Below are positions 1,398-20,369 of a stretch of 28,065 nucleotides of DNA, one piece after another (within the stretch, counting starts at the first letter, position 1; every line of letters begins with the position of its first letter). The notes under the pieces are model-generated. The model saw only the letters and a list, made by a program, of their open reading frames with translations. It ran no database searches and had not been told where the DNA came from. Origin of the DNA: a bacterium (GTDB lineage: Bacteria; Bacteroidota; Ignavibacteria; UBA10030); the NCBI GenBank assembly GCA_043803945.1, contig JAZDJN010000096.1:1-28065 (forward strand), read 5' to 3'. Position numbers and translations under genes: made by a program.

Positions 1398-1528
1398 TGA
1401 AAAATACTCTCTGCCAGGAGAAATAGTTTTTCAGTCCCATTGCTATGGAGACGACAAGGGCTTCCTGTTTTCATGATACGACTAAACACAAAACTACTCA
1501 AGCACGACTTTTCAGAAAGGATGTCGAT

Positions 1529-4500: not shown

Positions 4501-5203
4501 TGCGGGGGTGATCTGTAAGGGGAATGGAATGGGGGGCGAAATCTACTGCATAGATGTAGTAAATTGCTATCGGTTCTATTTTTGGAAAGGAGACGCTCCG
4601 AGTGTATTAGGCCCATCGCCTCAACCTGGTTGGTCTAGTATCGTGGTAACGTATGATGGCTCGACAATGCGATTCTATTACAATGGGTCATTGTATGCAT
4701 CGACCAGTACAAACCTTGGAAATTTAAACACAAATGACCATGTGGTTAGCATCGGTGCTCGCCAGTCCGGATCATCGACTTACAATTTCACATTCAATGG
4801 AGCAATAGACGCCGTACGGCTGTATGATTATCCATTGACAAGTGCGCAGGTGCTTGAGTATCACAATGGTACGCTGGCAAAACGTGGTGTGTATGAACCG
4901 GATCCGAAGGAGAATGTAGAAGTCGAATTGCCTCGTGAGTACCAACTGTTGCAGAATTATCCCAATCCCTTTAATGGATCGACAGTCATTGCATATGCCC
5001 TTCCACATGATTCTTATGTACGTCTTAGCATTATGGATCTCCTCGGTCGAGAGGTGGCGATACTTCTCGATGCTCACGTCAAGGCAGGCTACCATAGGGT
5101 AGCCTTCGATGCCGACCTGGCGCACCTGCCAAGCGGTGTTTATTTGTGTCGAATGCAGGCAAATGCGTTCGTCGAAACGCGCAAACTATTATACACGAAG
5201 TAA
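1529..5203 (+). CDS. Large secreted multidomain protein: glycoside-hydrolase-like TIM barrel, 2 LamG domains, 2 'PNG' Ig-like repeats, T9SS-type CTD
   Basis: Start moved to ATG 1529 (AAGGA upstream, signal peptide MKRYIRYISVLLALLSL). N-terminal motifs 'YSLAHEEP' and 'RRPTIEEMRVQAYLALSRGSRGI'. LamG ends 'FNGLIDEVRMWDRALS' and 'FNGAIDAVRLYDYPLT'. 'TSPNG/TQPNGGE' repeats. 'QNYPNPFNGST...LPSGVYLCRM'. Confidence 0.85.
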   Translation: MKRYIRYISVLLALLSLFRYEAFSQQSDTSSYFPLGFWGIWINPDRPPYNPQTFYISEWNKEKENWNNAKGNFLVYHIPQWVENQVMDYVETAGYRMDINRGHYNGSALDSSLVKWIREAEISMPWSTWTAGADARISAVVSAFGSRTGLYTYSLAHEEPIVNIAPENDSLFNATYCWPRVQYVANRIKQLDPNPLHKTYVVSGGAPSYGFVMSCPSVDIIQMDVYFFKEDVPNIYSAQQSALDNFLSHYDATMTRVRGRSTEWQAIIQSQREYRTVGDIAPRRPTIEEMRVQAYLALSRGSRGITSFVYGSDMRPSGGAQGSGGQNQSGVSGPVYPLLNGGVLPEQQSINGYDGLVDIDRTPFNETSDIDNIPAFENNKNLFIELASIGSTIRKLKHYQAFPGWNVPANNSAGIVSVSHNYNGDNRIEVGTFKRMDQGLDSTSYFILANRVCNDSIGTVSDFQSVSVVLQGNHSLEEQRSKQIYTGSYDIANDRSSFLLRLAPGEGKLFKIGPQYMKLHQAFNGNANDQSGSGNNGSIYGASFTPAASNLGLNFDGITDYVSIPNSSSLNPSAITLAAWIQPNTLFQDFGAGVICKGYGCGDEIYSIDIVDSKLRFYFWTNNAHGIVAPNPISGLAWISVVATYDGQTMILYLNGNEVARGTPGVSELAGNTHELTIGSRQSGNGEYDLSFNGLIDEVRMWDRALSASEILEFYNPQNAPPLTLTSPNGMQNMIVNSSHTITWTSTGIASINLFYTTNGGSSWLSIASNLAASSGSYIWTVPNTPSGNCLVKIVDVNNQAKYDESNCPFLISTPPASIVVTQPNGGETWWIGNSYWITWTSENVSSNVKIELSTDNGITISYLIAQNEANDGAFFWPIPSGIASSQCRILITAIDESAYDFSDNSFTIAQSGGVKIAQYSFDGNTLDESGNGNNGTIVGNAPYVTGRWGQALLFGNYNQYVSVPNTSLLNPGSISIAVCVNPSNPIVNFGAGVICKGNGMGGEIYCIDVVNCYRFYFWKGDAPSVLGPSPQPGWSSIVVTYDGSTMRFYYNGSLYASTSTNLGNLNTNDHVVSIGARQSGSSTYNFTFNGAIDAVRLYDYPLTSAQVLEYHNGTLAKRGVYEPDPKENVEVELPREYQLLQNYPNPFNGSTVIAYALPHDSYVRLSIMDLLGREVAILLDAHVKAGYHRVAFDADLAHLPSGVYLCRMQANAFVETRKLLYTK

Positions 5204-5227
5204 TAAATTTACTTGGAGGATTCAGTC

Positions 5228-5863
5228 ATGCGTAACTACACTGTCAATTTCCTGTTGCTGTGTTGCGTTTTCCTGAGCGCGATAGTGCAAGCACAAATCA
5301 AGCAAATGGAAGTCAGGAACGTCAAACTCTCACTCATCGAACATCCGTCAAAGGATGGCGAAATGCAAATGGTAATTGATTGTACCCTTCCACAGCTTCG
5401 CGATTTTTCGTGGATCAAATATGCCACTCTGGAATTGAAGGAGAAATCGTCAGTGAAGCTTGTCAAAAAAGATTCACTTACTCAACCAGTTAGCGAAGGC
5501 TTGCAAAATTCAGGCGCTAAAGCCGTTTCGTTTGCTTTATATGCCTATAACGGTAAAGAATCTCAGAGATGGGTCAATATCTCAAAGGATAGCTTGGTAC
5601 ATGATAATTGCATTCCGCTTGGAAAGACAGACCTGCCAAATGAGTTTGAAAAATATTCGATGCTCAATAAAAATAAAAAGGAATTCTTCAGCATGATATT
5701 CGATATTACAAACTCTTTGAGTAGAAGTATTAAAAGAGGTTCTTTAAAACAAACGTTTCTCCTGGCAGGGTTGGAGGAAAGCAGGATGGAATTTACATCG
5801 AAGCGAATCAATTTTGATCCATCAAAGCTTGATGCCATCATCAATATTTATTATGTGAATTAG
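5228..5863 (+). CDS. Secreted hypothetical protein
   Basis: GGAGGA RBS before ATG 5228. Signal peptide ending AIVQA-Q. Follows the upstream gene by 24 bp. Confidence 0.75.
   Translation: MRNYTVNFLLLCCVFLSAIVQAQIKQMEVRNVKLSLIEHPSKDGEMQMVIDCTLPQLRDFSWIKYATLELKEKSSVKLVKKDSLTQPVSEGLQNSGAKAVSFALYAYNGKESQRWVNISKDSLVHDNCIPLGKTDLPNEFEKYSMLNKNKKEFFSMIFDITNSLSRSIKRGSLKQTFLLAGLEESRMEFTSKRINFDPSKLDAIINIYYVN
5615..5784 (+). repeat. 170-bp direct repeat, copy 1 (inside 5228..5863)
   Basis: Ungapped match to 21751..21920, with 17 mismatches by hand count (~90%). Confidence 0.95.
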
Positions 5864-5882
5864 AATGCTTGCATTCCTTAAG

Positions 5883-5923
5883 GTAAGGCGGATGAGTGAT
5901 AGCTCATTCGCCTTGCTGTTTTT
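5883..5923 (+). terminator. Rho-independent terminator
   Basis: GTAAGGCGGATGAG-N6-CTCATTCGCCTTGC stem (with G-U pairs) followed by TGTTTT, 20 bp after the stop at 5863. Confidence 0.75.
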
Positions 5924-6019
5924 GGGTAGTGCGAGAATATATTTAATTCCTTCTCGCTCCCCGCTCAAACCATTCATAGATGACCTTCCATTCCTCTTCC
6001 GTCATTTTTTTCCTGCTCC

Positions 6020-6375
6020 TGGGCATTTGCTGTGCGGCATGCGTCCTCGCTCAGGAGGTCGGTGCAAAAGCAATTGTGGTGATTACCCATTCCGGTTCGA
6101 CAGCGATGCAGGTGGCGAAATATCGCCCATGTGCCAGAGTGATCGCAGCTACGGACCGTGAAAAAATCCTGCGCCGGCTAAATTTGATCTGGGGTATCCG
6201 GGGCATTGTGCTGCCCGATCTTGTCGGTGAGACTGATCATGCCTTTATCAAAGTAACGGAAGCGTTGAAGGGGATAGAGTATCTTGAAAGCGGGGACTAT
6301 GTGGTGTATACAGCCGGTATCCCGCTGCTGACACGCGGCACAACGAATACGGTGAAGGTAGAGAAAGTCATCTAG
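6020..6375 (+). pseudogene. pyk: Pyruvate kinase C-terminal (alpha/beta) domain remnant
   Basis: 'AACVLAQEVGAKAIVVITHSGSTAMQVAKYRP...RRLNLIWGI...GDYVVYTAGIP...GTTNTVKV' is the PK_C pattern. The barrel domain is absent. The 5' boundary is approximate. Confidence 0.85.
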
Positions 6376-6576: not shown

Positions 6577-7129
6577 TCATTGGATGAGCAGCATCTTTCG
6601 ATGAAGTGAAGACTTCGCAGTCTCTAGTCTGTAGATATAAATACCTGATGGTAGAGCCGATCCGTCAAAAGTAACATGATGAATTCCTGGATTGGAAACA
6701 GAGCGAGCTTCCCTGAAGACAAGATGGCCGAGCAAATCAAAAACGGACAGGCGGACATCCTGCGGTGTCGGAACTTCGAATTCAATTCGGCAAACCCAAT
6801 CGAGATACATCGAGTTGGAAGACTGAGCTGCGAGACGTGTGCGGTCCGAACACGTATGGGAGTTCCGTTGGCAAGAGAATCCACGATAAGCGAACATTGT
6901 CGAAGAACACCTGAGTGACAGGGCCTTGATATGGCTGAGTGACTGTGACAGCGGAATCCGCCTGGTTCGTGACCGTACCCGTAAGCATGCTTGCCTCGCC
7001 GTAGCCATAGGTTCTTTTGTCAGTCGTGATGGAGATCGTCAATTGCGCGAGTCCTTGCGGGCAGAAAAGCAAGGTCACGCAGACCAACACGGCTGCAGCC
7101 CTCGTCAGATTTCGTGAATCGTATGTCAT
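6577..7129 (-). pseudogene. Disrupted secreted protein with T9SS-type CTD
   Basis: The signal-peptide ORF (MTYDSRN...LLFCPQGLAQ) stops at 6782. A CTD fragment 'IEFEVPTPQDVRLSVFDLLG...LPSGIYIYRL...RKMLLIQ' continues in another frame and lacks the YPNPFNP motif. Confidence 0.75.
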
Positions 7130-7338: not shown

Positions 7339-8025
7339 TTAGTTACGATAGAATAACAACACCTCGACACGTCGGTTTTTTGCTTTGCGGTAGACGCTAG
7401 TATTGGCTTCCACTAACTTGCTTTGATTGTAAGTTGAATCTTCGGCCGAGCGCCCAGAGGGTTTGTATTCACCAAATGAAGTCGCGGACATTAGACAGAT
7501 CGAGGGGTCAACACAGACGGTGTCTTTAAAAAACTGGAATACCTCAATTGCCCTTGCTGCCGCTAATTCGAGGTTTGAGGGAAATCGCGATGATGGATCC
7601 GTGTCTGCGTGGCCTTGAATTTGAATTTCTTTAAGAGAAACCAATTGTTTTTTTATCACATTGCCTACTATGGAAAGCAGGTGCCTACCGCTCGGACTTA
7701 AAACAGCCACATCAGGCGGAAAAAGAACGTGGTCGCTGAACATTAACAGCTGTTTGTCAAGATCGTTGCGGATAACCATATCTCGATCTCGTCCATCGGA
7801 AAATGAGATAATAAAATCATCGCCGATCTTTTTGTGTTTTATATTGTAGGCGTCCTCGAGGCCTCGAATCATTGCTTCTTGTTTTTGCCTGATTGGGCCA
7901 ATGTCCACTCCAACAGCGAGCACAGCTGCGATGAGAAAAAGAACGAGAACAAGTACCAACACAATTGATAACATTATGTCAGCAAAAGAAGGCCAGAAGT
8001 TAAAATCGAGAGAAGATTCATCCAT
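7339..8025 (-). CDS. MotB/ZorB-like protein: one TM helix with conserved Asp plus OmpA-type peptidoglycan-binding domain
   Basis: 'FWPSFADIM' plus TM helix; 'IQIQGHAD', 'SNLELAAARAIEV', 'FGEYKP', 'NRRVEV'. Confidence 0.9.
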   Translation of the reverse strand: MDESSLDFNFWPSFADIMLSIVLVLVLVLFLIAAVLAVGVDIGPIRQKQEAMIRGLEDAYNIKHKKIGDDFIISFSDGRDRDMVIRNDLDKQLLMFSDHVLFPPDVAVLSPSGRHLLSIVGNVIKKQLVSLKEIQIQGHADTDPSSRFPSNLELAAARAIEVFQFFKDTVCVDPSICLMSATSFGEYKPSGRSAEDSTYNQSKLVEANTSVYRKAKNRRVEVLLFYRN

Positions 8026-8052: not shown

Positions 8053-9780
8053 TTAATCCCGGGTGAATGCTCTTGCAATGCGCGCTATTATTCGTTTTGG
8101 CCACCGCTCTTCTTCCTGCCTCTGTTTCTGAATTTCCTTTACCGGGATTTGGTCAAATTTACTGTGTTTTGTTGATTTAACGGTGTCCTGTAAATTGTTG
8201 ATTGATTGTGCAAGGTATTGCATTCTTTCGGATTGTGTTTGTGCTGTCGATGTCATCTGTGTCAGTAATGTGACAAGCGTGGAAGCGAGATCGTTAAAAA
8301 CAGTTAACTGTATATCAACCTGTTTTTCTCTCTGCATGAACAATCGTTGTAATTCCTCCTTGAGCGCAGTTGTGCGTTTATCAACAGCGTCAAGAGCTCC
8401 CGCGACCTTCTGTGCAGCATCGTTTATCGGAGTGTCAAATCGCTGGAATTGTTGAACGATTGCATTGAGCTGAACTCTTAGGGTGTTCTCCACGCTAGAC
8501 AATTCATCGTGGAGCTTTTGAATTAAGGGATTGCCAAAATTCTCAATTAGTTCTTTGTTCTTAGAATCAATTTGTGATAGGGTTTGATTAACAGACTCCA
8601 GGAGTTTTTGCAAAGCTTGATCAATTTGTTGGCGTTGAGCTAGGTAAGCTGTTTCATAACTCTTCAGGCTTGCTACAATTAGTTGCAGTTGTTGACCTTG
8701 ATCACAAAGAGTGGTGGAAATTGTTGATTGAAAAGCCTGAGCCTCCTTTAATGCTATCCCGACGTTTTCTTTGAGAGTCGATGAATTTTCCAAGGATTGC
8801 TTGTATAGGGAATGTAGTTCTTCTTGAAACGAAACTATCTTAGCTGTTCCTTGCTCAAATTTAGTTGCAAAGCCTGATAGGGAAGTTCCAATTTCGGAAA
8901 GTTGCTTAAGGACTTTGTTGGATGATTTAAGATTTGTGTTGAATTCGCTTGCTTCGTTCTGAATTTCTTTTGCAAACTCAGCAACTTTTTCTGCTGCTTG
9001 GAAACTCTGTCTCATTTGTTCCTCGCTACGCTTGAGAGTTTCGACAAGCCTCAATGGAGTTGTTGGTATTAACTGAGGTATCCAAACGTTAATTGTAAGA
9101 TGATCGAGCAGATGTTGTGCGGGTGCACAGATAAACCTAATGTAAAGAGTATACAGTAAAACTCCGATAATGGTCAGGGCGACCCCTGATATGCTTGGAG
9201 CGAACGCACCCCTTAATTGGAGCAAAAGATTAGAGATGGAAGAGCGAATCTGTTCGTTAGACCAAGCACGTGTGCTTGTTTGGATGGGTTCAGAGAATTG
9301 GATAAGACTATCTGCAAGGCCGATGAGTGTACCTAACAAGCCAAGCACAATAAAAGAGCCGAGAAGTCCTCGAAGAAAAGAAGTGTATGAAAATAGCCTT
9401 TGACTTGTATGTCTAAGTAACTCGCTGACATCCAGGCGTGTTTCAAAGTAACCAGCATCGAAAATGGATTTCAAATGAACCGATATAGGATCATCTTCTG
9501 GTAAAGTGTTACTTTTGGCGTACTTGGTGAAATATTCTTTGGTGGAAATATTTCCGAGGTTCAGGTCAGTGTGTTCATCCGAAATTCTTGCCCGTGATTT
9601 AGCGATAATGGAGCGAAGATAAGTAATATCGCTGCAGGAGGACAACCTACGCGTTCTGATGAAAATGGTTCTCGTGGTAAAAAAAAGAATCAGAAGCCAA
9701 ACGATAAAGGCTATACCTAGGATTACGACAATTGCTGATGCAATTGAATTTGTCGGATGCAAGTAATGTTCAAGGTTCAT
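8053..9780 (-). CDS. MotA/ZorA-like ion-channel subunit: 3 TM helices plus ~350-aa helical tail
   Basis: TM1 ~aa15-35. 'IVLGLLGTLIGL' and 'GAFAPSISGVALTII' match the MotA/TolQ/ExbB/ZorA helices. Long Q/E/L/K-rich heptad-like tail. Adjacent to the MotB-like gene. Confidence 0.85.
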   Translation of the reverse strand: MNLEHYLHPTNSIASAIVVILGIAFIVWLLILFFTTRTIFIRTRRLSSCSDITYLRSIIAKSRARISDEHTDLNLGNISTKEYFTKYAKSNTLPEDDPISVHLKSIFDAGYFETRLDVSELLRHTSQRLFSYTSFLRGLLGSFIVLGLLGTLIGLADSLIQFSEPIQTSTRAWSNEQIRSSISNLLLQLRGAFAPSISGVALTIIGVLLYTLYIRFICAPAQHLLDHLTINVWIPQLIPTTPLRLVETLKRSEEQMRQSFQAAEKVAEFAKEIQNEASEFNTNLKSSNKVLKQLSEIGTSLSGFATKFEQGTAKIVSFQEELHSLYKQSLENSSTLKENVGIALKEAQAFQSTISTTLCDQGQQLQLIVASLKSYETAYLAQRQQIDQALQKLLESVNQTLSQIDSKNKELIENFGNPLIQKLHDELSSVENTLRVQLNAIVQQFQRFDTPINDAAQKVAGALDAVDKRTTALKEELQRLFMQREKQVDIQLTVFNDLASTLVTLLTQMTSTAQTQSERMQYLAQSINNLQDTVKSTKHSKFDQIPVKEIQKQRQEEERWPKRIIARIARAFTRD

Positions 9781-9804: not shown

Positions 9805-10854
9805 TTATTCTCCTTCGCCCACCTGAAGCTCGCCGGGGTCAACAAGATTCCAAGTTTCACCTGTTGAGTGTGTGAAATAAGCTGGTCGAATCAGTGCGAA
9901 GCTCCTGTATCGCAAATTGGAATCAAATCCTAAGCAACGGAAAACTAAGCCGATGGCACCGGGACCATAATTTAATTCTTGCAAAGTCAGGTCGAAGCGT
10001 GGAACCACCGCAAACTTGTTGCTGGATTGGGCTCTTAAATCAATTGCGTAGTAGTCACCATCAGAAGCGGACTGGAAAACTGGCTTAAGATTTGAGTCTG
10101 TGCGACGCTCCATCGCATTTTGCACTCTGATGCGCGACATTCGGAAAGCATTTCGAAAACTTGATCGGTCATTCTCATTTCGCAAGGCAGCGTTGTAAGA
10201 AGAGATAAGTTCTTGTATAGGTAAGGATTCAATGGTTGTTGGTTTTGATAAGCTTGTCTCGAACATTTCTGTTGGAGGTGTCAGTGCAACTCTCGATTGT
10301 GTAGCAAATGGCACCCTAATGTGCTGCAATTCACTTTCAATAAGTTTAAGAGTCTCGTCTATCTGACGTTGCTTATCTTCGATACGCGTGAATCTTGAGT
10401 ACAGTCCATCCAGACGGTGGCTAATTTCGTAGTTTGAGGTCTGAGGTGAGTATGCCCTGTGTTGTCTTAATCGTCTTCTCTTTCCAAGTAAATACAGACT
10501 TGCTCCACTAACTGCCATGATTAGCACAACAGCAAGAGAAATTATTTGTATCAAAGAAATTGAATTTGTGTTAGAGCTCGATGGGTCTGCTTTTGTTACT
10601 GAACGAAATTCTTCGAGTTTTTCCGAGAGCTCAAGATTTTGTCTCTTGAGCTTTCTAATTTCTTCTAGTGTATTAGAAAGCTTTTCACTAAGACTGTCCA
10701 CTTTGGTGATGAGGGATTTGTCTTGTGTTGCGCCAGACTTGACACTTCGTTTATTCTTGTCAGACTGAGCGATGGATGAATGTTGTATCAGTAAAAAGAG
10801 AGAAAATAAAGCTGCAATTTTGACGAATCGCGATCTGGCCACGGCGGAAACCAA
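9805..10854 (-). CDS. Bitopic membrane protein: signal peptide, coiled coil, TM helix, coiled coil, C-terminal globular domain
   Basis: Signal peptide (...HSSIA-Q). 'LSEKLSNTLEEIRKLKRQNLELSEKLEE'. TM 'LIQIISLAVVLIMAVSGASLYLL' followed by KRRRLR. Start is TTG 10854 or GTG 10842. Confidence 0.8.
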   Translation of the reverse strand: MVSAVARSRFVKIAALFSLFLLIQHSSIAQSDKNKRSVKSGATQDKSLITKVDSLSEKLSNTLEEIRKLKRQNLELSEKLEEFRSVTKADPSSSNTNSISLIQIISLAVVLIMAVSGASLYLLGKRRRLRQHRAYSPQTSNYEISHRLDGLYSRFTRIEDKQRQIDETLKLIESELQHIRVPFATQSRVALTPPTEMFETSLSKPTTIESLPIQELISSYNAALRNENDRSSFRNAFRMSRIRVQNAMERRTDSNLKPVFQSASDGDYYAIDLRAQSSNKFAVVPRFDLTLQELNYGPGAIGLVFRCLGFDSNLRYRSFALIRPAYFTHSTGETWNLVDPGELQVGEGE

Positions 10855-10890: not shown

Positions 10891-13800
10891 TTACAGACTC
10901 TTCCATTCTTCTGAGCAGATTTCAAGCAACGTCTTGAGAGCCAGTATGAATAACGGTTCTACTGAGATTTTCTTTTCTTCAAGGCGAGCAATGTCACTGA
11001 GTTTGTCCCCGAGCCTTTTATGAACCTTCAGTATAATATCATTGCTTAGTGGTGGGAATCCAGAGTCCTTTCTTGCTGCAAAGGTGTTAAATATTGCGGC
11101 AAAGCTTTCCATTTGCTCAAGGTGAGCAGCCGGCGTCAGGTTATTTTTGAATGATTCGACAGACAATGGTGCTGACCACTCCATTCGCTTGCCTTGGATC
11201 AGAAAGCACTCGCCTGAGATAACCTGCGATATTGTTTCTGGTATGTCTAGAATTTTTTTACCGACAAGGCCACTAGCTGCTTCCTCCTTCGGTTTTTGAC
11301 TAAGAATAATCTTAAATGATGCTTTTGCGCATTGCTCCAAACCAGAAGATCGCGAAATCGAATCTCGAAAGAGGATATTGGCTGAGCTTTGAGGAGTAAA
11401 GGATCCTTCTGAGATCCAATGGAACAATTTTGAACCATTTCCACCCATGTAAATGTCAGGTAACTGGGGGTCATATTCACCCTTCTTTGCAAGGTGCTTA
11501 AGAATGAGTCCGACGTAGTAAAAGATACCAGATAGGCCGACTGCGATGATCTGAACGAATTTCTTCATATTGGCTTTTCCAGATTTCTTGTTAAGCAATT
11601 TGAGCCACGCTTCTCCTCGCACAGCGATGATTGCATCGGCGTGAGCACAGAATTCAAGTTCTCTTGCTTTCAACGCGATTAGTCGAGAGATGTCACTTTC
11701 GAACTCTTTGAGAAAGTCAGGATTTGTGCGTAGTGTATTCAAGAAGATTTCCCTACCTGCTAAGCGGAACGATACTTGATGACGGAGCGCGTTATTTTGC
11801 CAGATTGCGACGTCTGATGTGCCACCACCGACGTCGATACAGACTGTGCCGCTTTTTGTGGAAGCCTTTAGATTGTCAGCGAAGTAGATTGCCGAAGCAG
11901 CGCTTTCGGTCATCGCAATCGCCATATCCTCTGTTTGGGGAATTCCTAATAAGTTAGAATATTTTGAGATAATTTGTTGCCAGTTGACTTTCAAGCTTTG
12001 ATATTCTGAGAATGCTGTTGGATACGAATACCGCCAACCAACTTGCGCAACTCCTTTTGATGCAGCTTCGGCAAGAGCTTGTAAGTAAACCTGTTCTAGA
12101 AACGCAGTAGCTCGATATCGATCAATTTCATCCTCTGACCATTTAAGGTTCGTTGCAACGTTTTTTGGTATCTCATTTTGGACCTTGGTTGGGTCAAGAA
12201 AGAATATGTGGCCATCACAGAATGGATTCAATGTGTTCTCTTTTCCTGGCTCGCGGAATTGTTGGTAAAAACTAAGGAACGGAGTGCGCTGAGGATCTCT
12301 TGGGATGAATTCATCCCGCATTTGTAATCTTGCGTAGGTAGATTCTGTGACGTGGGCTGTTAGTTCCTCCCGGAAAAGTAAGGGCTCGCCCTCATTGTCT
12401 TCTTCGGAAGTATACAGAGTTGTACTGGTTGTCCCGAAGTCAATACCGATTTTCCAAGTGTTGCGGGTTGGATCAGCTTTTTCAGGTGCTTTCAGTATTA
12501 TTAATCCCGCGTAAAACTCGTCCATTCGATTAAGTTGAAGATTAAGGCCTAGCGCGAAACACTTGACTGCACTTGGGAAAGAATCCGTTTGCGTGATTTC
12601 ACTTTCTGTTCGATTCCTATCCAACTTGATAGTGTATTCTGTCTTCACACCGTCAAGAACAAACGGCTTAGCATAGAAGGTGCTTTCCCTGCCAGTCTTT
12701 GAGTAATAAGTAAAGTATAGTTGCCAACCTTCTTTTCTGAAGTTTGGCCAAATCTCGAGGACTGGGACTCCTTCTAGTACTAGAATCGTATCTTTGTGAT
12801 ACTCCCGTCGAAATTCTACCAATTTACCTTTACCGTCTGGTCCGGAAAGTCGCAGCCGTAGACGAACTTGAATAGGCCCTCCTTCAGAGGATTGCTCGAA
12901 CACGATGTTCTTTTGGAGGTCATCATTGCTGATGTGGGACAAAACCTTGTCAGTGAATGGAAGCAAAGGTGTTACAATTTGACCTTGAACTGTCAGAGAA
13001 CCAGAGCCAGCACTTAACATCGCACCCGGTAGTGCGTTTGCTTGATAAATTACGCAAAGCTTAGTAGTGAATATGTCTTCAGGGAGACAAATCTCTTCCT
13101 TGTCTTGCTGCAAATGAATACCACCGATCTGGCTGCGTTCTGTCCCGAATCCACTGGGGGGAATATCCGCCAGGGTTGCACCTTTGTAGACGACAATGTT
13201 TGTTTCGGGCATATTCCATTGCTGAGCGATTGATCTGTCGATAACAAAGATTGTTTTTGCAGGAGTTCGTCCTTCGGACGGCAAAAGTTGCAGGTGTGAA
13301 TTTGGCAATCCATTGCCATCACCCTTTAGCGGTTTGTCTAAATATTGGAAGATCCCTCTGGTTAAACCGAATCCTCTTGTGCTTAGGATTACCTTCACAC
13401 TTGCCACACCACCAAGATCGGCGATGTAATTGGATAGGTGACGAAGCAACTTATTCAAACGGGGATTAGGATGATTTGGATTAGACAAAGAACTCAAAGC
13501 AGAGAGTAGATTATCTATCCATGCTGCAAGTAATCTTCTCTCGTTTTGGTTAAGCTTGTTTGTCTTTTCCCCATCAGTTTCCTTTATCTTGCCGGATGGG
13601 TCTTTCAGGAATCGTCCGTCAGACCAGTTTACCCCATTCAGTCGATTAAAACAGTCTGTAGCGGTACAAACCAAGGTAGTAGGAGAAAGTATACCAATCG
13701 GTTTATCGTTATTTAGGACAACAAACGGGAAAAATTTTGTTTGTGCATCTATCCAGAGAGTCGATTGCTCCAAGGTATTTGTGTTGGAGGCCATCTTTGC

Positions 13801-14235
13801 CACAGTCGAGAGGAATCGTGGCCATTGTTCGTTGCCTTGGGCATCCTTTGGAATCACCTCGATTAGATTTCCATTCTCATCGGTCCGCTTCACTCTCGGG
13901 TGTGCCTCGATGATCCTCAAACTAAATCCCTTGATTTCCTTGAAAGCCAACAAAGCTAGCAAACCCCGCCATTCTGCTACAGTGCGATAATGAAGAAGAT
14001 GGTCGGAATCGAAAAATGCCATTTCGAAGAGAAGTGGCCGAGCCCAAACATCCGGAATAGAGTTTATCTGAGATGCAACACGCTCCACCTTCAAACTATC
14101 ACTTAATTTGTCCAGTTCACTAAAGTCTCTTTTGTCCCAAACTCCGTTTTCCTTAAAGTTACCAATCCTGTTTTCTGACCCTTGTTTGAGTTTAGGAAGC
14201 AGAGGATGATAAATGATTTCATTGCTGGTAGGCAT
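10891..14235 (-). CDS. Large protein (1114 aa) with C-terminal actin/Hsp70/FtsA-superfamily ATPase domain
   Basis: Phosphate-1 'IGIDFGTTST', connect-1 'MTESAASA', phosphate-2 'CIDVGGGTSD', adenosine 'YMGGNGSK', connect-2 'PKEEAASGL'. Start moved to ATG 14235 (AAAGGAG RBS, 5 bp after the tubulin stop). Confidence 0.85.
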   Translation of the reverse strand: MPTSNEIIYHPLLPKLKQGSENRIGNFKENGVWDKRDFSELDKLSDSLKVERVASQINSIPDVWARPLLFEMAFFDSDHLLHYRTVAEWRGLLALLAFKEIKGFSLRIIEAHPRVKRTDENGNLIEVIPKDAQGNEQWPRFLSTVAKMASNTNTLEQSTLWIDAQTKFFPFVVLNNDKPIGILSPTTLVCTATDCFNRLNGVNWSDGRFLKDPSGKIKETDGEKTNKLNQNERRLLAAWIDNLLSALSSLSNPNHPNPRLNKLLRHLSNYIADLGGVASVKVILSTRGFGLTRGIFQYLDKPLKGDGNGLPNSHLQLLPSEGRTPAKTIFVIDRSIAQQWNMPETNIVVYKGATLADIPPSGFGTERSQIGGIHLQQDKEEICLPEDIFTTKLCVIYQANALPGAMLSAGSGSLTVQGQIVTPLLPFTDKVLSHISNDDLQKNIVFEQSSEGGPIQVRLRLRLSGPDGKGKLVEFRREYHKDTILVLEGVPVLEIWPNFRKEGWQLYFTYYSKTGRESTFYAKPFVLDGVKTEYTIKLDRNRTESEITQTDSFPSAVKCFALGLNLQLNRMDEFYAGLIILKAPEKADPTRNTWKIGIDFGTTSTTLYTSEEDNEGEPLLFREELTAHVTESTYARLQMRDEFIPRDPQRTPFLSFYQQFREPGKENTLNPFCDGHIFFLDPTKVQNEIPKNVATNLKWSEDEIDRYRATAFLEQVYLQALAEAASKGVAQVGWRYSYPTAFSEYQSLKVNWQQIISKYSNLLGIPQTEDMAIAMTESAASAIYFADNLKASTKSGTVCIDVGGGTSDVAIWQNNALRHQVSFRLAGREIFLNTLRTNPDFLKEFESDISRLIALKARELEFCAHADAIIAVRGEAWLKLLNKKSGKANMKKFVQIIAVGLSGIFYYVGLILKHLAKKGEYDPQLPDIYMGGNGSKLFHWISEGSFTPQSSANILFRDSISRSSGLEQCAKASFKIILSQKPKEEAASGLVGKKILDIPETISQVISGECFLIQGKRMEWSAPLSVESFKNNLTPAAHLEQMESFAAIFNTFAARKDSGFPPLSNDIILKVHKRLGDKLSDIARLEEKKISVEPLFILALKTLLEICSEEWKSL

Positions 14236-14240
14236 AAGAG

Positions 14241-15788
14241 TTACTCCTTTCCGACCGTATACATTTGTGCAAATTTTTCTGTCTTGCATTGGGTATACAA
14301 AGCATTGATGAATCGCCCCGATGCCCTAGCTTGAGCGTCACTAACGTTTGAATCGCTCATTCTTTCCCACAGATGGTCGAGAGCATTTGCTTTCTCAGAC
14401 TCGCAGGGAAGCAACAGATCCGCAAACTCTTGGACAAAATAGGTCTTGGGGTCCTTTAGTATGATAGTCTGTTTTCCGTTCTCTTTTTTTGAGGTTGCGA
14501 AAGTGTTGTGGTTGAAGAGCTGCATATCTACTTCCTTGGCACTTGCTTGCACATTGGCGGCCCATAGGAGAAAAGTCTGACAGTAATCTCGGACCTTCAA
14601 CAATTCTGCGTCAAGCACTTTTGACAATTGGACATCACGAGACCGTTCGAAGAGATTGATATACCAGGGAGAGCGGTAACCTCTTCCATTCCTAGCAATG
14701 CTTTGGAGAGTTGGATAGTACGTGCAATCATAGGCAAAGGCGAAACGAACCAATTGATCAAGCTTGGCAAGCAGGTAACGTCTATCGTTCACAAAGGGTA
14801 TGTCGTACCAAGATTGCACATTTGTCTGTTTGCGAGCTATCATCATACAATTGTCGGGTTTCTCCGTTTTGAAGAAGTCGATGGCTGCAAGTGCTGCATA
14901 TATTTCGAGAAAATGTGGTTCATTCCTTTGGTCTTTACCTCCCTTTGGATCTTTTCCACTGGTTAATGAAGGTCCTAGGGGTGTTAATACGTGATCACCC
15001 AATACATACAGTGAGTTGAAGGCATCCAGATAGTCTGTGCCTGCATAGTATTTGAGCGCCGCTTGTGTATTGATCAAGAAGTTCTCAGCTTGGGCTCGCA
15101 TCTCGTTGTCATCAGTTCGATCAAAAGAAAAATATGGTAACATAGCGACAGCCGAAATATGGTAATTCTCGATGATTTTGTTCTTTTTCAATTCTTCTTT
15201 GATTAAGCGTGCAATGGTAGGTAATCCGGATGCACCTGTTCCGCCGAAAATTGAACCGAACAATATTATTTTTGCCGGTTCGCCAGTCTTTGCATCTCGG
15301 GCAATCTTATCTCGGAAAGTCTTCCACGGCTCTCCTGACCCAAGATCGATTGTGCTCGTTAGTACGGCCGCACCAATCGCTGGATGCCCTCTAAAACCTT
15401 CGTCAAGTCGTGTGCCCTTTTCTTCAGTGCTAAAGAGAACGTCAAAAAGGTGAACCACATTTGGTGTGTTGGACTTCATCTCGTCATAGGTGAAAAACTC
15501 CTCAAGATTTGGCTTTGTTTCTTGACCGAAGGGTGACCATACATCCGGAATGGCAACTGAGATTGGAGTTTTGAACAAGTCAATAGAACCTAACTTCAAC
15601 TCCCGGCAAGTTGAATAGAGTTGAAGCGTTAACTCAGCGCGTTCAAGTGTGCCGTTGGATTTGTCCGGATCTACAAACAATACATACATTTCTTTGTTCG
15701 TGGGCATAAGACCTGCTGAACATAGATGTATAAGTGATTCGATACATTTGGCTCCTGTACCGCCAATACCGATTGCATAATAGGCCAT
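14241..15788 (-). CDS. Divergent tubulin/FtsZ-superfamily GTPase (Tubulin_2/FtsZ-like)
   Basis: T1 'IGIGGTGAK', T3-like 'GFRGHPAIG', signature loop 'GSIFGGTGASG', 'MLPYF'. GAAGGAG RBS. Confidence 0.9.
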   Translation of the reverse strand: MAYYAIGIGGTGAKCIESLIHLCSAGLMPTNKEMYVLFVDPDKSNGTLERAELTLQLYSTCRELKLGSIDLFKTPISVAIPDVWSPFGQETKPNLEEFFTYDEMKSNTPNVVHLFDVLFSTEEKGTRLDEGFRGHPAIGAAVLTSTIDLGSGEPWKTFRDKIARDAKTGEPAKIILFGSIFGGTGASGLPTIARLIKEELKKNKIIENYHISAVAMLPYFSFDRTDDNEMRAQAENFLINTQAALKYYAGTDYLDAFNSLYVLGDHVLTPLGPSLTSGKDPKGGKDQRNEPHFLEIYAALAAIDFFKTEKPDNCMMIARKQTNVQSWYDIPFVNDRRYLLAKLDQLVRFAFAYDCTYYPTLQSIARNGRGYRSPWYINLFERSRDVQLSKVLDAELLKVRDYCQTFLLWAANVQASAKEVDMQLFNHNTFATSKKENGKQTIILKDPKTYFVQEFADLLLPCESEKANALDHLWERMSDSNVSDAQARASGRFINALYTQCKTEKFAQMYTVGKE

Positions 15789-15823: not shown

Positions 15824-16285
15824 TTACCACCATCGTCGAAGACTCTGAGCACCTAATGGAGTGTACTTGAATGACGAAGGTGAGAATAGGACTGTGCCGA
15901 CGTAGTACGGGGCTATTGCACTAATAAGGTAAAAGAAGTAAGCCCACCACATACCTTCCTGCACTGCTGGAGTCAATAAAATTGCTACAATAGTTGTTAC
16001 TGCAGGCAGAGAAATGAGGATTAACCAAGCGAGCCTTTTGCCTGCACTTGTCCAGTCATTCAGTCGAAACAACCATTGAGCAAGGATGTACCAGAGAAGT
16101 CCGCTTACGGTTGAAGCAATAATAATGTAGACAGACCAATCCTTAAAAGTACTGAGCCACTCTTCGATTGAAGATGGTGTACCTGAGACGACATTATAGA
16201 GATGCTTAGATTCGACAAGCACGGCAAGTGAAACCATTGCAAGAGCGATGATGGGCATAGCGATAACGAGTAAAAAGCGTTTCAT
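15824..16285 (-). CDS. Four-TM membrane protein
   Basis: Four hydrophobic segments. C-terminus 'LFSPSSFKYTPLGA'. AAAGGAG RBS before ATG 16285. Confidence 0.8.
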   Translation of the reverse strand: MKRFLLVIAMPIIALAMVSLAVLVESKHLYNVVSGTPSSIEEWLSTFKDWSVYIIIASTVSGLLWYILAQWLFRLNDWTSAGKRLAWLILISLPAVTTIVAILLTPAVQEGMWWAYFFYLISAIAPYYVGTVLFSPSSFKYTPLGAQSLRRWW

Positions 16286-16302
16286 ATGAGCTCCTTTCTG
16301 GT

Positions 16303-17637
16303 TCATTCTTTCCTGATGTAATAGAATAGGTGCGCAATCTCTGGTTTCTGGGTTTGAACAATTGCTTGAAAAAGGTCGAGCGAGAACTTCCTCAGATTAA
16401 GAGTTGTGTTCCCCTCAAAAGTTGTTGGCTCATGTTTCCAATCAGGCAGTTTTGTGAGATTCATATCCCAAGAAGATACCCACTTGGGTAATAAGTCTAT
16501 GTTATCCTTGAGGTGTATTGTTTGTTCAATAATGTATACTCCAGTTGCCAGCAGGTTACTCTCGTCTATTTTTAATCGAAGTTCTATCAATGAATCGTTG
16601 ACCTCTGATGTTGTCGTGATAACGTTGCTCCAGTCCGGATAGGTAACAAGTGTATCTCGGTTACCGACAAGTTCCGCAGCTTGTACTTTGTGTGGTGTAA
16701 TTTTAATCTCAAATGCAGATGGATCAAGATCGAGAGTGTAGGGCAGACGGACTCTCGGTAATAGAAGGGTCAATTGGGATTGAGACCGGCCACTTTTTAT
16801 TCTAAGTTGTTTTACCCTTGAATCCTTTGAGTCGTGCGGTAAGATGTTTGTAATCTCATCTGTGTTAACTTTCGAATGCACCTTTGCTTTTTCAAATGAG
16901 GGCAACGGGTATGAGAAGTGACGGGACAGTATAACGAAATTCTTGGTAGGCAGTTCATTGAGAATTCTGATATCAAGGCTTCTGTGTAAGTGCTCAATAT
17001 CTCGATGTTTTCCAATCATAAGAATGTAGAATGGTCGCTGACCGTCATAGTCAAAGCGGTCTCGGTTGATACCTACGTCAAAGACGGTACCGCGAAATTC
17101 ACTTTTTATACCAAGCAAACCAACTGACAAGTCCTTTGGGAGAAATCTATCTTTGAGCTTGTTCACCAATTGAGTGACGTCAGCGTCATCTTGAAAAAGA
17201 TCTGCCACAATAATCGTAAGGCGTTCGGTGCTTGCACCATCAATAACTTTCTCCATTGACGTGACACCACGAAGATCCGGCTCATTGTAGAAGGCTGGCT
17301 TGACTACGTTCTTCTGTTCACGCCCGGTCAGTTCTCTTATCGTTGTGCCGAATCTGTAGAATGTAACCGTTGCATTCGGCCATCCGGTTGTGATTGAACC
17401 CTCAATTCTGTCGACAGTCCGTGCATAGTCTGTAGTGATGCCTAGATTAACAAAACCTTGCATAGAAAGGGTGGCATCGTAAAACACATCGACGTTGATT
17501 TCGGTTGATTTGTCTTCAAGTTTCTCGTACTGATGTATAGCTGGAGGTGGCCACTTCTTGGGAGTTGAGCAAGATCCGAGGATGAATGCACCTCCGAGTA
17601 TCAGGGTTGGCAAGAGTAAACTCTTTAAGATTCTCAT
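16303..17637 (-). CDS. Lipoprotein with vWA-like domain
   Basis: Lipobox 'ILGSC'. MIDAS-like 'VFYDATLSMQGF' and later 'IIVADLFQD'. AAGGA RBS before ATG 17637. Confidence 0.75.
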   Translation of the reverse strand: MRILKSLLLPTLILGGAFILGSCSTPKKWPPPAIHQYEKLEDKSTEINVDVFYDATLSMQGFVNLGITTDYARTVDRIEGSITTGWPNATVTFYRFGTTIRELTGREQKNVVKPAFYNEPDLRGVTSMEKVIDGASTERLTIIVADLFQDDADVTQLVNKLKDRFLPKDLSVGLLGIKSEFRGTVFDVGINRDRFDYDGQRPFYILMIGKHRDIEHLHRSLDIRILNELPTKNFVILSRHFSYPLPSFEKAKVHSKVNTDEITNILPHDSKDSRVKQLRIKSGRSQSQLTLLLPRVRLPYTLDLDPSAFEIKITPHKVQAAELVGNRDTLVTYPDWSNVITTTSEVNDSLIELRLKIDESNLLATGVYIIEQTIHLKDNIDLLPKWVSSWDMNLTKLPDWKHEPTTFEGNTTLNLRKFSLDLFQAIVQTQKPEIAHLFYYIRKE

Positions 17638-17815
17638 ACTGTGATCCTTATGTAGTATATTCAATTCTTATATACGAGAAATGGCGCCTAACTATCGGCT
17701 AATTGCCATACCTGTCTACCGTCTTACTTGTGAGATGGCGATTATTTTCTCTCTGGGCAGAACTTCATTCGATGGCTTTCTCTCTCTAGTCGGTTGAAAA
17801 GTGACTTTAAACACA

Positions 17816-17966: not shown

Positions 17967-18587
17967 TCAACAGAGGTGCTCCTCCATTGCTTTCGCAACG
18001 GCAATTCCCCTGCTATGGACGTTAAGTTTCTTATAGATATTTTTGCAGTGTGAAGTGATGGTGTAGTAGCTCGACGACGATCTTCGTGCTATCTCCGCCA
18101 TTTTCATCCCGGAGATAAGGCAGCGTAATATTTCCTTCTCCCGTAATGTCAAATGGTACTCGTCACTGTTATCGATTGCGAGATGTTCCAACTGGGGACA
18201 ATAATATCGATGACCCTTGTGAAGAGCGTGAATTGCCCGGAGCAATTCTTCCGGCGGTGCATCTTTGAGCACATACCCGCTCGCTCCGGCGCGAATGGCT
18301 TCTCTCACAAATCCCTTCTGAAGATGCATCGAGTGCACCAGATATTTTGTTTGAGGCAGCGCTTTGCCGAGGTGTCTGATAAGTTCAAGCCCATTCTCGT
18401 CGGCCAAACTGATATCGAGAATTATGATCTCAGGAGAATACAGCGGCGCCTTTGCGATCGCCTCTTTTAAGGAGAGCGCCTCTCCAACAACGCTGATCCC
18501 GCTCTGCTCTTCAAGGAAATCTTTTACCCCTTTGACCGTCAAAGGGTGATCTTCAACGATAAATATCTTAATTGGTTTTCTGCTCAT
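17967..18587 (-). CDS. NarL/LuxR-family response regulator (REC plus HTH)
   Basis: 'IVEDH', 'ILDISL', 'GASGYVLK', 'LTLREKEIL...HCKNIYKKLNV'. Start is probably ATG 18587 and overlaps the kinase end. Confidence 0.92.
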   Translation of the reverse strand: MSRKPIKIFIVEDHPLTVKGVKDFLEEQSGISVVGEALSLKEAIAKAPLYSPEIIILDISLADENGLELIRHLGKALPQTKYLVHSMHLQKGFVREAIRAGASGYVLKDAPPEELLRAIHALHKGHRYYCPQLEHLAIDNSDEYHLTLREKEILRCLISGMKMAEIARRSSSSYYTITSHCKNIYKKLNVHSRGIAVAKAMEEHLC

Positions 18588-19752
18588 GGAACGTTTCGGC
18601 GCCATTAAAAGGCGACTGAAAAAATATTTCTGTCCCCTTCTGCAGCTCAGAATGAATCCTCAGCGATCCCCCAAGGCTTTTTGCCCGCTCTTTCATCCCG
18701 ACTATGCCTAAGGGAAAGTGACCGTCCTGCGATTGATGATTGGTATGATCGAACCCCCGGCCATTGTCGGCAATACTCATTGTGAGGGTTTTATTTTCGA
18801 TGAGCAGTGTAATGGTCACTTCTTTTGCGTCGGCATGTTGTTCGACATTGTGGAGGGCCTCTTGAACGATCCTGAAAAGGACAATTTCCATCTGTTGCGG
18901 CAGTCGGGCGATCAAACCGGCATCTTCAAGAAGAATGTTGATTCCGGTTTTCTCCTGGAACTCTTCACAAAAATTCTCTAACGCCTTCTTGAATCCGAAT
19001 CGATCCAGGACAAGAGGTCGGAGCTTACCGAGAATCCGGCGTACTTCGATGATGGTTTGCCCCAGCAGCTTTTCAGCTTCATTCAATGAACCTCTTATGG
19101 CTTTGAATTTAGCAGGTTTCGACTTGTAGATCGTCCTGTTGATTTCAAGCTTAGCCGCATTGATGAGCGCGCCGATACTGTCATGCAATTCCCGTGAGAT
19201 ATACCTGTTCTCCTCTTCGCGAGCCAACATCACTCTTCTCGCAAGTTGCTTGAGATCTTCCTGCGCTGTATAGTGCGCGGTTATATCACGGAAATTTACA
19301 ACCACGGCCCGGACGGCAGGCTCCTGAAGAAGGTTATTCGCAGAGAACTCGATCCATCTCCAACTCCCATCCTTGTGCCGGATTCGAGATTGGGAACAAA
19401 TGAGTTGTGCGCTGGAATTTATGAGATGTTGACGAAACACCTCCATTCCCGCAGTATCGTCGGCATGGACAATATTCCATACCGAGAGGACGTTGAGATC
19501 CTCCATCGAATAACCGAGTATGAGCTGCAGCGATGGGCTCGCGAATATTATTCTCCCTTGTTCATTGAATAACAGCACGACATCGCTGCAGTGTTCGATG
19601 AGGGCACGAAACCGCTTCTCACTCTCTTCAATGATGGCGAGACGTTTCCGTTGCGATTTGGTGATATTCCACACAACTGTAACTGCCGATGCAATCAATA
19701 CAACGGTACCGGCAGCAAACATCACAAAAAGTTCTATCGGCGATAAAAACAC
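18568..19752 (-). CDS. PAS-domain sensor histidine kinase (HisKA_3, NarX/UhpB type) with one N-terminal TM helix
   Basis: PAS 'RFRALIEHCSD...RIRHKDGSWRW'. H-box 'ISRELHDSIG'. 'FRIVQEALHNVEQHA', 'IADNGRGF', 'LGIVGMKERA'. Start is probably GTG 19752 or ATG 19722, not 19914. Confidence 0.92.
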   Translation of the reverse strand: MFLSPIELFVMFAAGTVVLIASAVTVVWNITKSQRKRLAIIEESEKRFRALIEHCSDVVLLFNEQGRIIFASPSLQLILGYSMEDLNVLSVWNIVHADDTAGMEVFRQHLINSSAQLICSQSRIRHKDGSWRWIEFSANNLLQEPAVRAVVVNFRDITAHYTAQEDLKQLARRVMLAREEENRYISRELHDSIGALINAAKLEINRTIYKSKPAKFKAIRGSLNEAEKLLGQTIIEVRRILGKLRPLVLDRFGFKKALENFCEEFQEKTGINILLEDAGLIARLPQQMEIVLFRIVQEALHNVEQHADAKEVTITLLIENKTLTMSIADNGRGFDHTNHQSQDGHFPLGIVGMKERAKSLGGSLRIHSELQKGTEIFFQSPFNGAETFHEQKTN

Positions 19753-20369
19753 ACGAATCCCATGCTGTAAGAGATGTTCGTCAGTATCGTAATGAACGCT
19801 TGAACGCTGAATGCAAGCCGGAGTGTCTCCAGGGACACCTCGAGGAACGAGTTGCTCAATGCATACAGGAATACCATGCTCGAAAAGTATACGGTTGCCG
19901 TGGAGGAGATCCAAAACTCCGGTTGATGAATCAATTTGCCCTGTACTCTATCGGCGACCACGCCAAGTGTTTGTCCGGCAATGATTGCCAGGAGAATACA
20001 CTCCGTGCTTTTTGTGATGCTGTTGAATAATATCTTGTCCTCAACAAAGAAAAACATCAGCAGGCAAAACAGGGTGAAAAGCATAATAGAAAGATGAAGC
20101 ACCCTCTTTGCCCTAGTTGATACTTGCCAGGTGGCAAACAGCCACGCAAAGACTCCATATTGAATTGGGGTGAATAGATGAATAGTCCAGAGATTATTCA
20201 CGTCGTGTAGCGCAAACCAGAGCTGGATCAAAGTGAAACAGCAAGAGCACGATATATACACCAGGAATATTTTAAATCCTTTATTTAAGTGCCTGAACAA
20301 TAACAAACCGCTTGCCAGTACTACAAAATGCGAAAAGGCGGCAATGTGTATGTGGAGCGGTATAGACAT
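19734..20369 (-). CDS. Polytopic (~6-7 TM) membrane protein, possible receptor
   Basis: Hydrophobic throughout. 'NNLWTIHLF', 'PEFWISS...YFS'. AGGTG RBS. Overlaps or abuts the kinase start. Confidence 0.8.
   Translation of the reverse strand: MSIPLHIHIAAFSHFVVLASGLLLFRHLNKGFKIFLVYISCSCCFTLIQLWFALHDVNNLWTIHLFTPIQYGVFAWLFATWQVSTRAKRVLHLSIMLFTLFCLLMFFFVEDKILFNSITKSTECILLAIIAGQTLGVVADRVQGKLIHQPEFWISSTATVYFSSMVFLYALSNSFLEVSLETLRLAFSVQAFITILTNISYSMGFVCFYRR

Follow-up and report, generated by a model that had tools for sequence, protein, structure and literature searches.

We analysed a 28,065-nucleotide (nt) stretch of DNA from a member of the Bacteroidota (Ignavibacteria, UBA10030; GenBank assembly GCA_043803945.1, contig JAZDJN010000096.1, positions 1 to 28,065 of the forward strand), referred to here as the window. 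It encodes a tubulin/FtsZ-fold GTPase and, directly downstream, a giant ATPase with an actin-like ASKHA domain, and the two proteins very probably work as one complex. Their genes are the third and fourth of seven head-to-tail open reading frames (ORFs) that span 17664 to 7339 and are separated by -4, 35, 5, 36, 24, and 27 nt. All coordinates are window positions, and all genes of this cassette lie on the minus strand.

The tubulin-like and ATPase genes and their products

The tubulin-like gene (gene 3, 14241..15788; 515 amino acids, aa) ends with a TAA codon at 14243-14241, which is followed by 5 nt (CTCTT) and by the ATG of the ATPase gene at 14235 (gene 4, 10891..14235; 1114 aa). The last two sense codons (K-E) of the tubulin-like gene form a Shine-Dalgarno-like hexamer, AAGGAG (14244..14249), whose 3' end lies 8 nt before the ATPase ATG. 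The 5-nt junction and the ribosome-binding site inside the last tubulin codons, both described in an original prediction made from the letters of the window, are confirmed. This arrangement indicates that the two genes are probably translationally coupled, and AAGGAG may act as the Shine-Dalgarno site for the ATPase; its presence before the ATPase start is notable because Bacteroidota hosts seldom use such sites. We place the start at 14235 because homologues begin about 10 residues ahead of the conserved LLPKL motif, and the same homologue N-termini exclude the in-frame ATG at 14289. Scans for promoters and terminators stay at chance level (19 sites where 16.3 are expected, and 10 where 10.3 are, respectively).

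The tubulin-like protein belongs to the Tubulin_2 (FtsZl1) family, of which it is a short form: its match to the Pfam model PF13809 spans residues 6-246 and scores 37.3 bits against a cut-off of 27, and most of its homologues, which are 484-538 aa long, carry the same domain. An AlphaFold2 model built on an alignment of 34 homologues (predicted local distance difference test, pLDDT, 79.8; predicted template modelling score, pTM, 0.86) has the Rossmann-like GTPase domain with T1 and T4 loops of the tubulin/FtsZ superfamily. Foldseek with this model gives no match at E<=0.001 and mixes CetZ and FtsZ with short-chain dehydrogenases; Foldseek alone was insufficient, and the structural alignment needed VIA-align. 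TubZ and PhuZ are among the structural matches of the model. Tubulin/FtsZ structures align over residues ~1-343, leaving ~170 family-specific C-terminal residues, so the C-terminal extension proposed originally is real, but is shorter than the ~200 aa first estimated. In the model, residues 336-508 fold into a compact domain of helices and beta structure that is specific to the family. A search of PDB sequences with the tubulin-family profile yields only a chance match (E 0.53). The comparison by hhalign with the FtsZ of the same genome and with a seven-member FtsZ alignment pairs only T3 and T4, at a probability of ~1%, matching FGGTGASG with FtsZ T4 and GFRGHPAIG with T3.

The T4 signature loop FGGTGASG (residues 181-188, 15225..15248), already singled out in the original prediction, is invariant in the family, since the pattern F-G-G-T-G-A-[SA]-G-x-P-T occurs in all 81 members of the family alignment, which covers at least five phyla. 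A second family signature is QRNEPHFLE (residues 287-295, 14904..14930), in which Q287, N289, and H292 are each conserved in 80 of the 81 members and position 295 is E in 76 and D in 4. It overlaps GGKDQRNEPH (residues 283-292), which had been placed at about the position of the FtsZ T7 loop. The NxDFAD motif of T7 is indeed absent from the protein, but QRNEPH more likely belongs to the T6/H7 guanine-binding region, because both the strand order of the model and the collinearity of motifs with FtsZ point there. The model contains, in order, S4 (172-179), T4, H4, S5 (209-216), T5 (LPYFSF), H5 (234-250), and S6 (259-263), with QRNEPH after S6 and before an H7-like helix (294-307), and the collinear motifs are PYFSF with PFxFEG, RAQAEN with RRxxQAExG, and SLYVLGD with TLIxIPND of the FtsZ consensus. 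The alternative assignment of helix 234-250 as H7 and QRNEPH as T7 is rejected by the strand count, which makes them H5 and T6/H7. The T7 equivalent, if any, would lie within residues 308-331; R319, W327, and D329, past the H7-like helix, are invariant in a separate 34-sequence alignment.

The ATPase consists of residues 1-589, the ASKHA nucleotide-binding domain at residues 590-996 (11248..12468), and a helical C-terminal region at residues 997-1114 (model pLDDT 84.9, pTM 0.75). The ASKHA domain is supported by fold search and by invariant motifs, and its two RNase-H-like lobes together with the phosphate-1, phosphate-2, and adenosine motifs place it in the ASKHA superfamily. All five actin-fold motifs had been reported; phosphate-1 (IGIDFGTT; D599, G601), connect-1 (TES; E777, S778), phosphate-2 (IDVGGGTSD; D801, G803, T806, D808), and adenosine (GGNGS; G932) are present and invariant at these residues, but connect-2 was not located separately. 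The best Foldseek matches of the domain are Hsp70 nucleotide-binding domains (E 1.3e-9), MreB, ParM, and FtsA match it as well as Hsp70 does, and AlfA is also among the matches. Residues 1-589 and 997-1114 match no Pfam or NCBIfam family, which bears out the earlier description of an N-terminus of ~590 aa that belongs to no assigned family. The Atlas offers only hypothetical clusters for residues 1-589, and searches with the whole ATPase model are filled by the ASKHA domain. A lead to SrfB for the same region was dropped, as the Atlas value is sub-threshold (0.81, 19% of members) and the SrfB Pfam model matches none of 36 members. The N-terminal arm (residues 7-69, 14029..14217) has a pLDDT of 36-63 in the monomer model, where confidence is low over the first 61 residues, yet contains the conserved motifs LLPK, GxW, and IPDxWARP. 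The ATPase has many relatives: a profile search of 1.84 billion representatives yields 1293 of them at E<=1e-30, and where sources such as RefSeq give a name it is 'hypothetical protein'.

Partnership of the two proteins

With the tubulin family alignment as the query, 80 loci from at least five phyla were retrieved, while a single-protein query retrieved none. The ATPase gene is present in 62 of the 80 loci, and in 59 of these 62 it starts no more than 400 nt downstream of the tubulin-like gene on the same strand. Chance pairing is excluded, because the pair is conserved across loci. The 18 loci without the ATPase are mostly from Selenomonadales, and in all five tested genomes where the two genes are not adjacent, a full or partial ATPase is encoded elsewhere (E 1e-87 to 1e-232). 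Wherever one gene of the pair is on a plasmid record, so is the other (6/6). A search for longer proteins that fuse the two gives six matches of 1341-1657 aa, two of which were checked. In the fusion P0246 (1595 aa), residues 1-441 resemble the tubulin-like protein (E 7e-56) and residues 510-1586 resemble ATPase residues 12-1106 (E 5e-87), in the same order as the gene pair; in P0242, the ATPase part, which is the part checked, is confirmed. The pairwise distances of the tubulin-like proteins and of the ATPases are correlated (r 0.965 over 56 pairs; 0/1000 permutations as high), and this comparison of sequences shows co-inheritance of the pair, not binding.

In the Selenomonadales genomes of loci L058, L028, L064, and L077, the ATPase genes are unlinked to the tubulin-like gene and longer, with open frames of 1237-1255 aa, and two of these four frames weakly match the 349-aa protein encoded by gene 5 of the cassette (E ~4e-5). 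This suggests that the long ATPase of Selenomonadales is a fusion of genes 4 and 5.

We predicted the complex of the full-length tubulin-like protein and ATPase residues 1-440, with alignments of our own and without nucleotides. The prediction gives ipSAE interface scores of 0.86, 0.85, and 0.86, and the best of three controls reaches 0.00. The model contains 260 contacts, of which at least 92% are common to the runs, and the pLDDT of the partners is at least 78. In the calibration of the tool, the mark is reached by 58 of 80 solved complexes and by 2 of 110 mismatched pairs, a calibration that applies only roughly here because the alignments were our own. It is unlikely that the pair passes from the memory of the model, because the profile search finds no tubulin-family homologue among PDB sequences. 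The predicted interface comprises, on the tubulin side, residues 99-123, T3 (134-141), T4 (183, 186-191), T5 (217-219), H5, S6, the H7-like helix, and residues 312-331, and, on the ATPase side, residues 7-69, 109-115, 139-153, and 170-196, so that the N-terminal arm is predicted to wrap round the tubulin-like protein. QRNEPH (residues 287-292) is outside the list of interface residues. That the interface takes in the T3, T4, and T5 loops of the nucleotide face is compatible with the original suggestion that the tubulin-like protein may be activated by its partner and may not self-activate as a filament. Conserved positions are enriched in the interface on both sides: 28 of 80 interface positions against 47 of 435 others in the tubulin-like protein (p 3e-7), and 16 of 77 against 32 of 363 in ATPase residues 1-440 (p 0.004). 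The predicted model supports binding between the two proteins. The original prediction held that they form a complex and named complex modelling as a check; the claim is well supported, and we conclude that the tubulin-like GTPase and the actin-fold ATPase very probably work as one complex because of their linkage in 59 of the 80 loci, the ATPase genes found elsewhere in 5/5 genomes, the fusions, and the passed complex prediction.

The large predicted interface, which wraps the GTPase, would also be expected if the two were a chaperone-client or assembly-factor pair, in which the Hsp70-like ATPase holds, folds, or recycles the GTPase, as the tubulin cofactors do, and is no co-effector. The Hsp70 nucleotide-binding domains at the top of the Foldseek matches are in line with this explanation. 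However, MreB, ParM, and FtsA match equally well, the ATPase has no substrate-binding domain of Hsp70 chaperones, the region after the ASKHA domain consists of 118 helical residues, and Pfam HSP70 (PF00012) matches none of the 36 members scanned. Stable 1:1 fusions are also unlike the needs of a chaperone that turns over. We consider a chaperone role quite unlikely.

Adjacent and probably translationally coupled genes for a tubulin-fold and an actin-fold protein also recall ftsZ and ftsA, and the pair could be a second, specialised division or septation system. This is the least probable of the explanations considered here, and we give it hardly any weight. A canonical ftsA-ftsZ pair is located on another contig (C12) of the same genome, and an FtsZ with the FtsZ_C domain is found in 5/5 other carrier genomes tested; because of these two findings the system is classed as non-division, as originally proposed, and its separation from cell division is supported. 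The FtsZ of the same genome carries FtsZ_C (E 8e-33), but FtsZ_C (PF12327) has no match in the tubulin-like protein, whose C-terminus is helical in the model, and the protein therefore lacks the combination of FtsZ_C and a division role that marks FtsZ proper. Likewise, the scan of the ATPase finds neither an SHS2_FTSA domain nor a family-level match to FtsA. The gene order is opposite to that of ftsA-ftsZ, and the tubulin-like gene is missing from 60/60 relatives (36 of the same family and 24 of the same order) at E<=1e-10.

The resemblance to FtsZ-FtsA holds only at the superfamily level: in both cases neighbouring genes encode a GTPase of tubulin fold and an ATPase of actin fold with a joint role, here a probable one, at the membrane, but gene order, FtsZ_C, NxDFAD, and SHS2 are not shared. 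FtsA binds a short C-terminal peptide of FtsZ, whereas the interface predicted here is a globular one of 260 contacts with the N-terminal region of the ATPase. The pair is real, conserved, and more than a paralogous FtsZ-FtsA, and is a novel form within Tubulin_2/FtsZl1.

The other cassette genes, their distribution, and related systems

Gene 1 (16303..17664) encodes a 453-aa predicted lipoprotein of no known family, with a hydrophobic N-terminus (residues 10-34) and a lipobox cysteine, Cys32, in its signal peptide. Cys32 and the D, S, M, and G columns of a D..SM.G motif are at least 95% conserved in 51 sequences. The motif is reminiscent of a metal-ion-dependent adhesion site (MIDAS). No Pfam, NCBIfam, or PADLOC family matches the protein, and assignment as a vWA protein was rejected, as Pfam gives no match in 15 homologues and the Atlas gives hypothetical proteins only. 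Gene 2 (15824..16306) overlaps gene 1 by 4 nt and encodes a 160-aa membrane protein with 3-4 hydrophobic spans. Downstream of the ATPase gene, gene 5 (9805..10854) encodes a 349-aa protein with a hydrophobic N-terminus, a second membrane span at residues 95-125, a coiled coil, and a C-terminal domain that matches no known family.

The last two genes encode a stator-like pair. The product of gene 6 (8053..9780), a ZorA/MotA-like protein of 575 aa, crosses the membrane three times and has a helical tail of ~340 aa; it matches PADLOC ZorA3 weakly (E 1.7e-5), and Pfam MotA_ExbB stays under its cut-off in the window protein and exceeds it in the homologue at locus L039 (28.0 vs 22.9 bits). Gene 7 (7339..8025) encodes a 228-aa ZorB/MotB-like protein that matches PADLOC ZorB1 (E 9.5e-14) and Pfam OmpA (E 8.3e-9), with an Asp within FADIM in its single membrane span and an OmpA-type, peptidoglycan-binding domain. 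The pair resembles the Zorya stator in the three spans and long helical cytoplasmic tail of the MotA-like protein, in the membrane-span Asp and OmpA-type domain of the MotB-like protein, and in being encoded with cytoplasmic partners in a mobile cassette. In contrast to Zorya, ZorA is matched only weakly, none of ZorC, D, E, F, and G is found, and the stator occurs in 15-16 of the 80 loci.

Homologues of gene 1 are present in 50 of the 80 loci and those of gene 2 in 57, directly upstream of the tubulin-like gene; genes 5, 6, and 7 have homologues in 27, 15, and 16 loci, respectively. The full set of seven genes recurs in Pyrinomonadaceae and other Acidobacteriota, in Poribacteria, in one Bacteroidaceae genome, and in Mitsuokella. 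The cyanobacterial version has no stator; it keeps the tubulin-like and ATPase genes, the 160-aa gene, and the 453-aa gene, the last of these in divergent orientation. Seven of the eight loci from Poribacteria have an additional, eighth ORF (~312-321 aa) after the ZorB-like gene, in the same orientation and with no PADLOC match (L004:19687-20649, L007:18678-19613, L008:19061-20014, L010:18844-19806, L011:18445-19407, L012:19063-20022, and L063:19364-20320). Directly downstream of the cassette at a locus from Pyrinomonadaceae (L005:18079-21489), an ORF that extends to the end of the retrieved sequence, and so has a length of 1137 aa or more, matches the PADLOC candidate PDC-S37 (E 1.2e-289).

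Most copies of the tubulin-like gene are chromosomal, but some are on cyanobacterial plasmids. One plasmid copy, at locus L083, is on the 47.5-kb plasmid Cy782204 of Gloeothece verrucosa PCC 7822 (NC_014503.1), which is MOBP mobilizable and has a core of a divergent 467-aa gene, a 156-aa gene, a 511-aa tubulin-like gene, and an 1118-aa gene, with two further unnamed genes. The presence of the pair on six plasmid records, and of TubZ, PhuZ, ParM, and AlfA among the structural matches, would fit a TubZ- or ParM-related device for the segregation of plasmids or other DNA. We think this very improbable: family scans find no DNA-binding adaptor in the operon, the genes conserved with the pair encode a lipoprotein and membrane proteins, and the copies are mostly on chromosomes.

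Among described systems, the cassette comes closest to those of FtsZl1/Tubulin_2 reported by Makarova and Koonin (2010; PMC2875224). In the part of that paper available to us, FtsZl1 proteins are 763-1208 aa long, with a coiled coil and a helical C-terminal domain, and are encoded in operons of the type vWA-FtsZl1-B7-MotB in cyanobacteria and unnamed-unnamed-FtsZl1-MotA-OmpA in Deinococcus. The same part describes an FtsZl1 protein of Magnetospirillum, amb2958, whose gene adjoins that for a 1626-aa DnaK-like protein. Compared with these proteins, the one in the window belongs to the same Pfam family and shares the divergent N-domain with T1 and T4, the lack of the FtsZ/tubulin C-terminal domain, and the patchy distribution, and its operon has the same succession of an upstream periplasmic protein, a small membrane protein, the tubulin-like protein, a MotA-like protein, and an OmpA/MotB-like protein. 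It differs in its length of 515 aa and the absence of a coiled coil, and so departs from the original FtsZl1 architecture (coiled coil, helical C-domain, ~760-1200 aa). It is also accompanied by or fused to an ASKHA ATPase of ~1100 aa, which does not appear in the text we had of PMC2875224, and the upstream lipoprotein has no Pfam-detectable vWA domain.

A second comparison is with the DO-GTPase/GAP1 conflict systems, which are defined by one or two TRAFAC DO-GTPases and GAP1, include tubulin or HSP70 components, and are often located near the membrane (Kaur et al., 2020; PMC7159879). According to the accessible text of that study, the tubulin and HSP70 neighbourhoods are separate, non-overlapping themes; they occur chiefly in Firmicutes and Actinobacteria, and P-loop GTPases always accompany them. 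Within the part available, it is the sole publication we found in which homologues of tubulin and members of the HSP70 family count among the parts of conflict systems in prokaryotes. The cassette differs from the systems in that text on the GTPase part, since none of its seven proteins has a Walker A motif or matches a GTPase family; the libraries used hold no GAP1 model.

Several neighbouring genes of the window were also annotated. The minus strand at 17967-19914, immediately before the cassette, encodes a response regulator of the LuxR type (212 aa) and a histidine kinase with a PAS domain (448 aa). Their link to the cassette is probably local, because similar regulators and kinases are present near only 4 and 3 of the 80 loci, respectively. 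On the other side, a 131-aa ORF (5980-6375, plus strand) comprises the C-terminal alpha/beta domain of pyruvate kinase alone (PK_C, E 1.8e-31) and could have arisen by decay or splitting of a longer gene; no family is matched by the two ORFs that precede it (5213-5863 and 5865-6161). A 1252-aa Laminin_G_3 protein (1445-5203, plus strand) and a small protein (6577-7008, minus strand) end in Por_Secre_tail domains, and these type IX secretion sorting domains point to a Bacteroidota host.

A candidate envelope-linked machine

With somewhat better than even confidence, we favour the explanation that the cassette encodes an envelope-linked machine, in which a heteromer of the tubulin-like protein and the ATPase is the core of a mobile membrane cassette that serves as a Zorya-like trans-envelope sensing or conflict system, or as an envelope-stress system. 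The tubulin-like GTPase and the giant ASKHA ATPase would be two subunits of one cytoplasmic machine. In the predicted complex, the N-terminal arm and the first domain of the ATPase clamp the nucleotide-binding face of the tubulin, and the N-module of the ATPase would stand at the place of the next protofilament subunit and might gate or regulate GTP turnover. To this conserved core a periplasmic lipoprotein and a small polytopic membrane protein would be added, and in the window also the coiled-coil membrane protein and the ZorA/ZorB-like, peptidoglycan-anchored proton-channel stator with its long cytoplasmic tail. The small membrane protein may hold the heteromer at the inner membrane, an event at the envelope could be reported or powered by the stator and the envelope proteins, and the heteromer could then act on the cytoplasmic side as a nucleotide-gated switch or an effector assembly. 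The folds, motifs, conserved linkage, fusions, patchy distribution, and plasmid copies are observed and the interface is predicted, whereas we infer which way signals run, a part in defence, and polymerisation, if it occurs at all.

Several observations weigh against this explanation. The complex score expresses model confidence, not a measured quantity, and refers to ATPase residues 1-440 in a nucleotide-free state. All 25 conserved interface positions are also kept in 16 tubulin-like proteins without the ATPase at their locus, so that part of the conservation of the interface reflects the nucleotide loops and not the partner; in the five tested genomes among those ATPase-less loci, the partner is encoded elsewhere. 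Since QxNxxHxxE, R319, and D329 are conserved, the tubulin-like protein may still self-assemble in the ordinary way. Because the ZorAB-like pair is present in only 15-16 of the 80 loci and cyanobacteria are without it, the stator is an add-on and not part of the core. The defence-island signal is weak: PADLOC gives mostly no match and many generic ones (helicases, kinases, and ABC-type ATPases) for 88 ORFs that flank 12 loci, and specific defence candidates adjoin the cassette in only two of the 12, at L005 (PDC-S37 and HEC-06/Orf5) and L011 (ThsA-like, E 6e-15). For the five other operon proteins, PADLOC gives no match to any model at E<=0.01, and thus no Zorya effector. Finally, no publication on a cassette that combines a tubulin-like protein, an ASKHA protein, and a ZorAB-like pair, or on this short tubulin-like form with an obligate partner of actin fold, was found in a search whose coverage excludes subscription journals.

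The main rival is filament-based membrane remodelling. Here, the tubulin-like protein would polymerise at the inner membrane, either by itself or together with the actin-fold protein, into filaments that shape vesicles or other membrane structures, and the MotAB-like and OmpA-type proteins would be their anchors in the envelope. Membrane remodelling was proposed by Makarova and Koonin for the Tubulin_2/FtsZl1 family, to which the protein belongs, and FtsZl1 operons follow the same plan (a vWA or unnamed protein, a small protein, FtsZl1, a MotA-like protein, and OmpA/MotB), as far as the available part of that paper goes (PMC2875224). Both folds are classical filament formers, and the conserved QxNxxHxxE, R319, and D329 could serve longitudinal contacts; however, the predicted heterodimer buries the T3/T4/T5 face and residues 312-331, where the next tubulin subunit would dock, and the canonical C-terminal activation domain is absent (no FtsZ_C match and a helical C-terminus in the model). 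Moreover, a gene that is missing from all 60 relatives and travels on plasmids looks more like an accessory trait than like part of a housekeeping cytoskeleton. We therefore regard such a cytoskeleton as rather unlikely, although it deserves more attention than the chaperone, segregation, and division explanations.

The envelope-linked machine can also be put in a stronger form, which we offer as a tentative and, at present, doubtful proposal: that the pair is an obligate tubulin-actin heteromer, locked through globular domains and fused in some cyanobacteria, whose GTP hydrolysis is controlled by the partner, and that it is the switch or effector of a new and widespread family of envelope-sensing conflict or defence systems, some with a Zorya-like stator. 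The tubulin and actin folds define the two great cytomotive families, and to our knowledge tubulin- and actin-fold proteins were previously known to meet in bacteria only loosely; here they appear as fixed partners, with a very large predicted interface on the GTP loops. If the proposal is true, the pair would be the first example of a machine that locks a GTPase of tubulin fold to an ATPase of actin fold via their globular domains. The cassette is a clonable object for asking how divergent Tubulin_2/FtsZl1 proteins work, which has been a question since 2010, and it allows testing whether Zorya-type stators signal to partners that are not nucleases.

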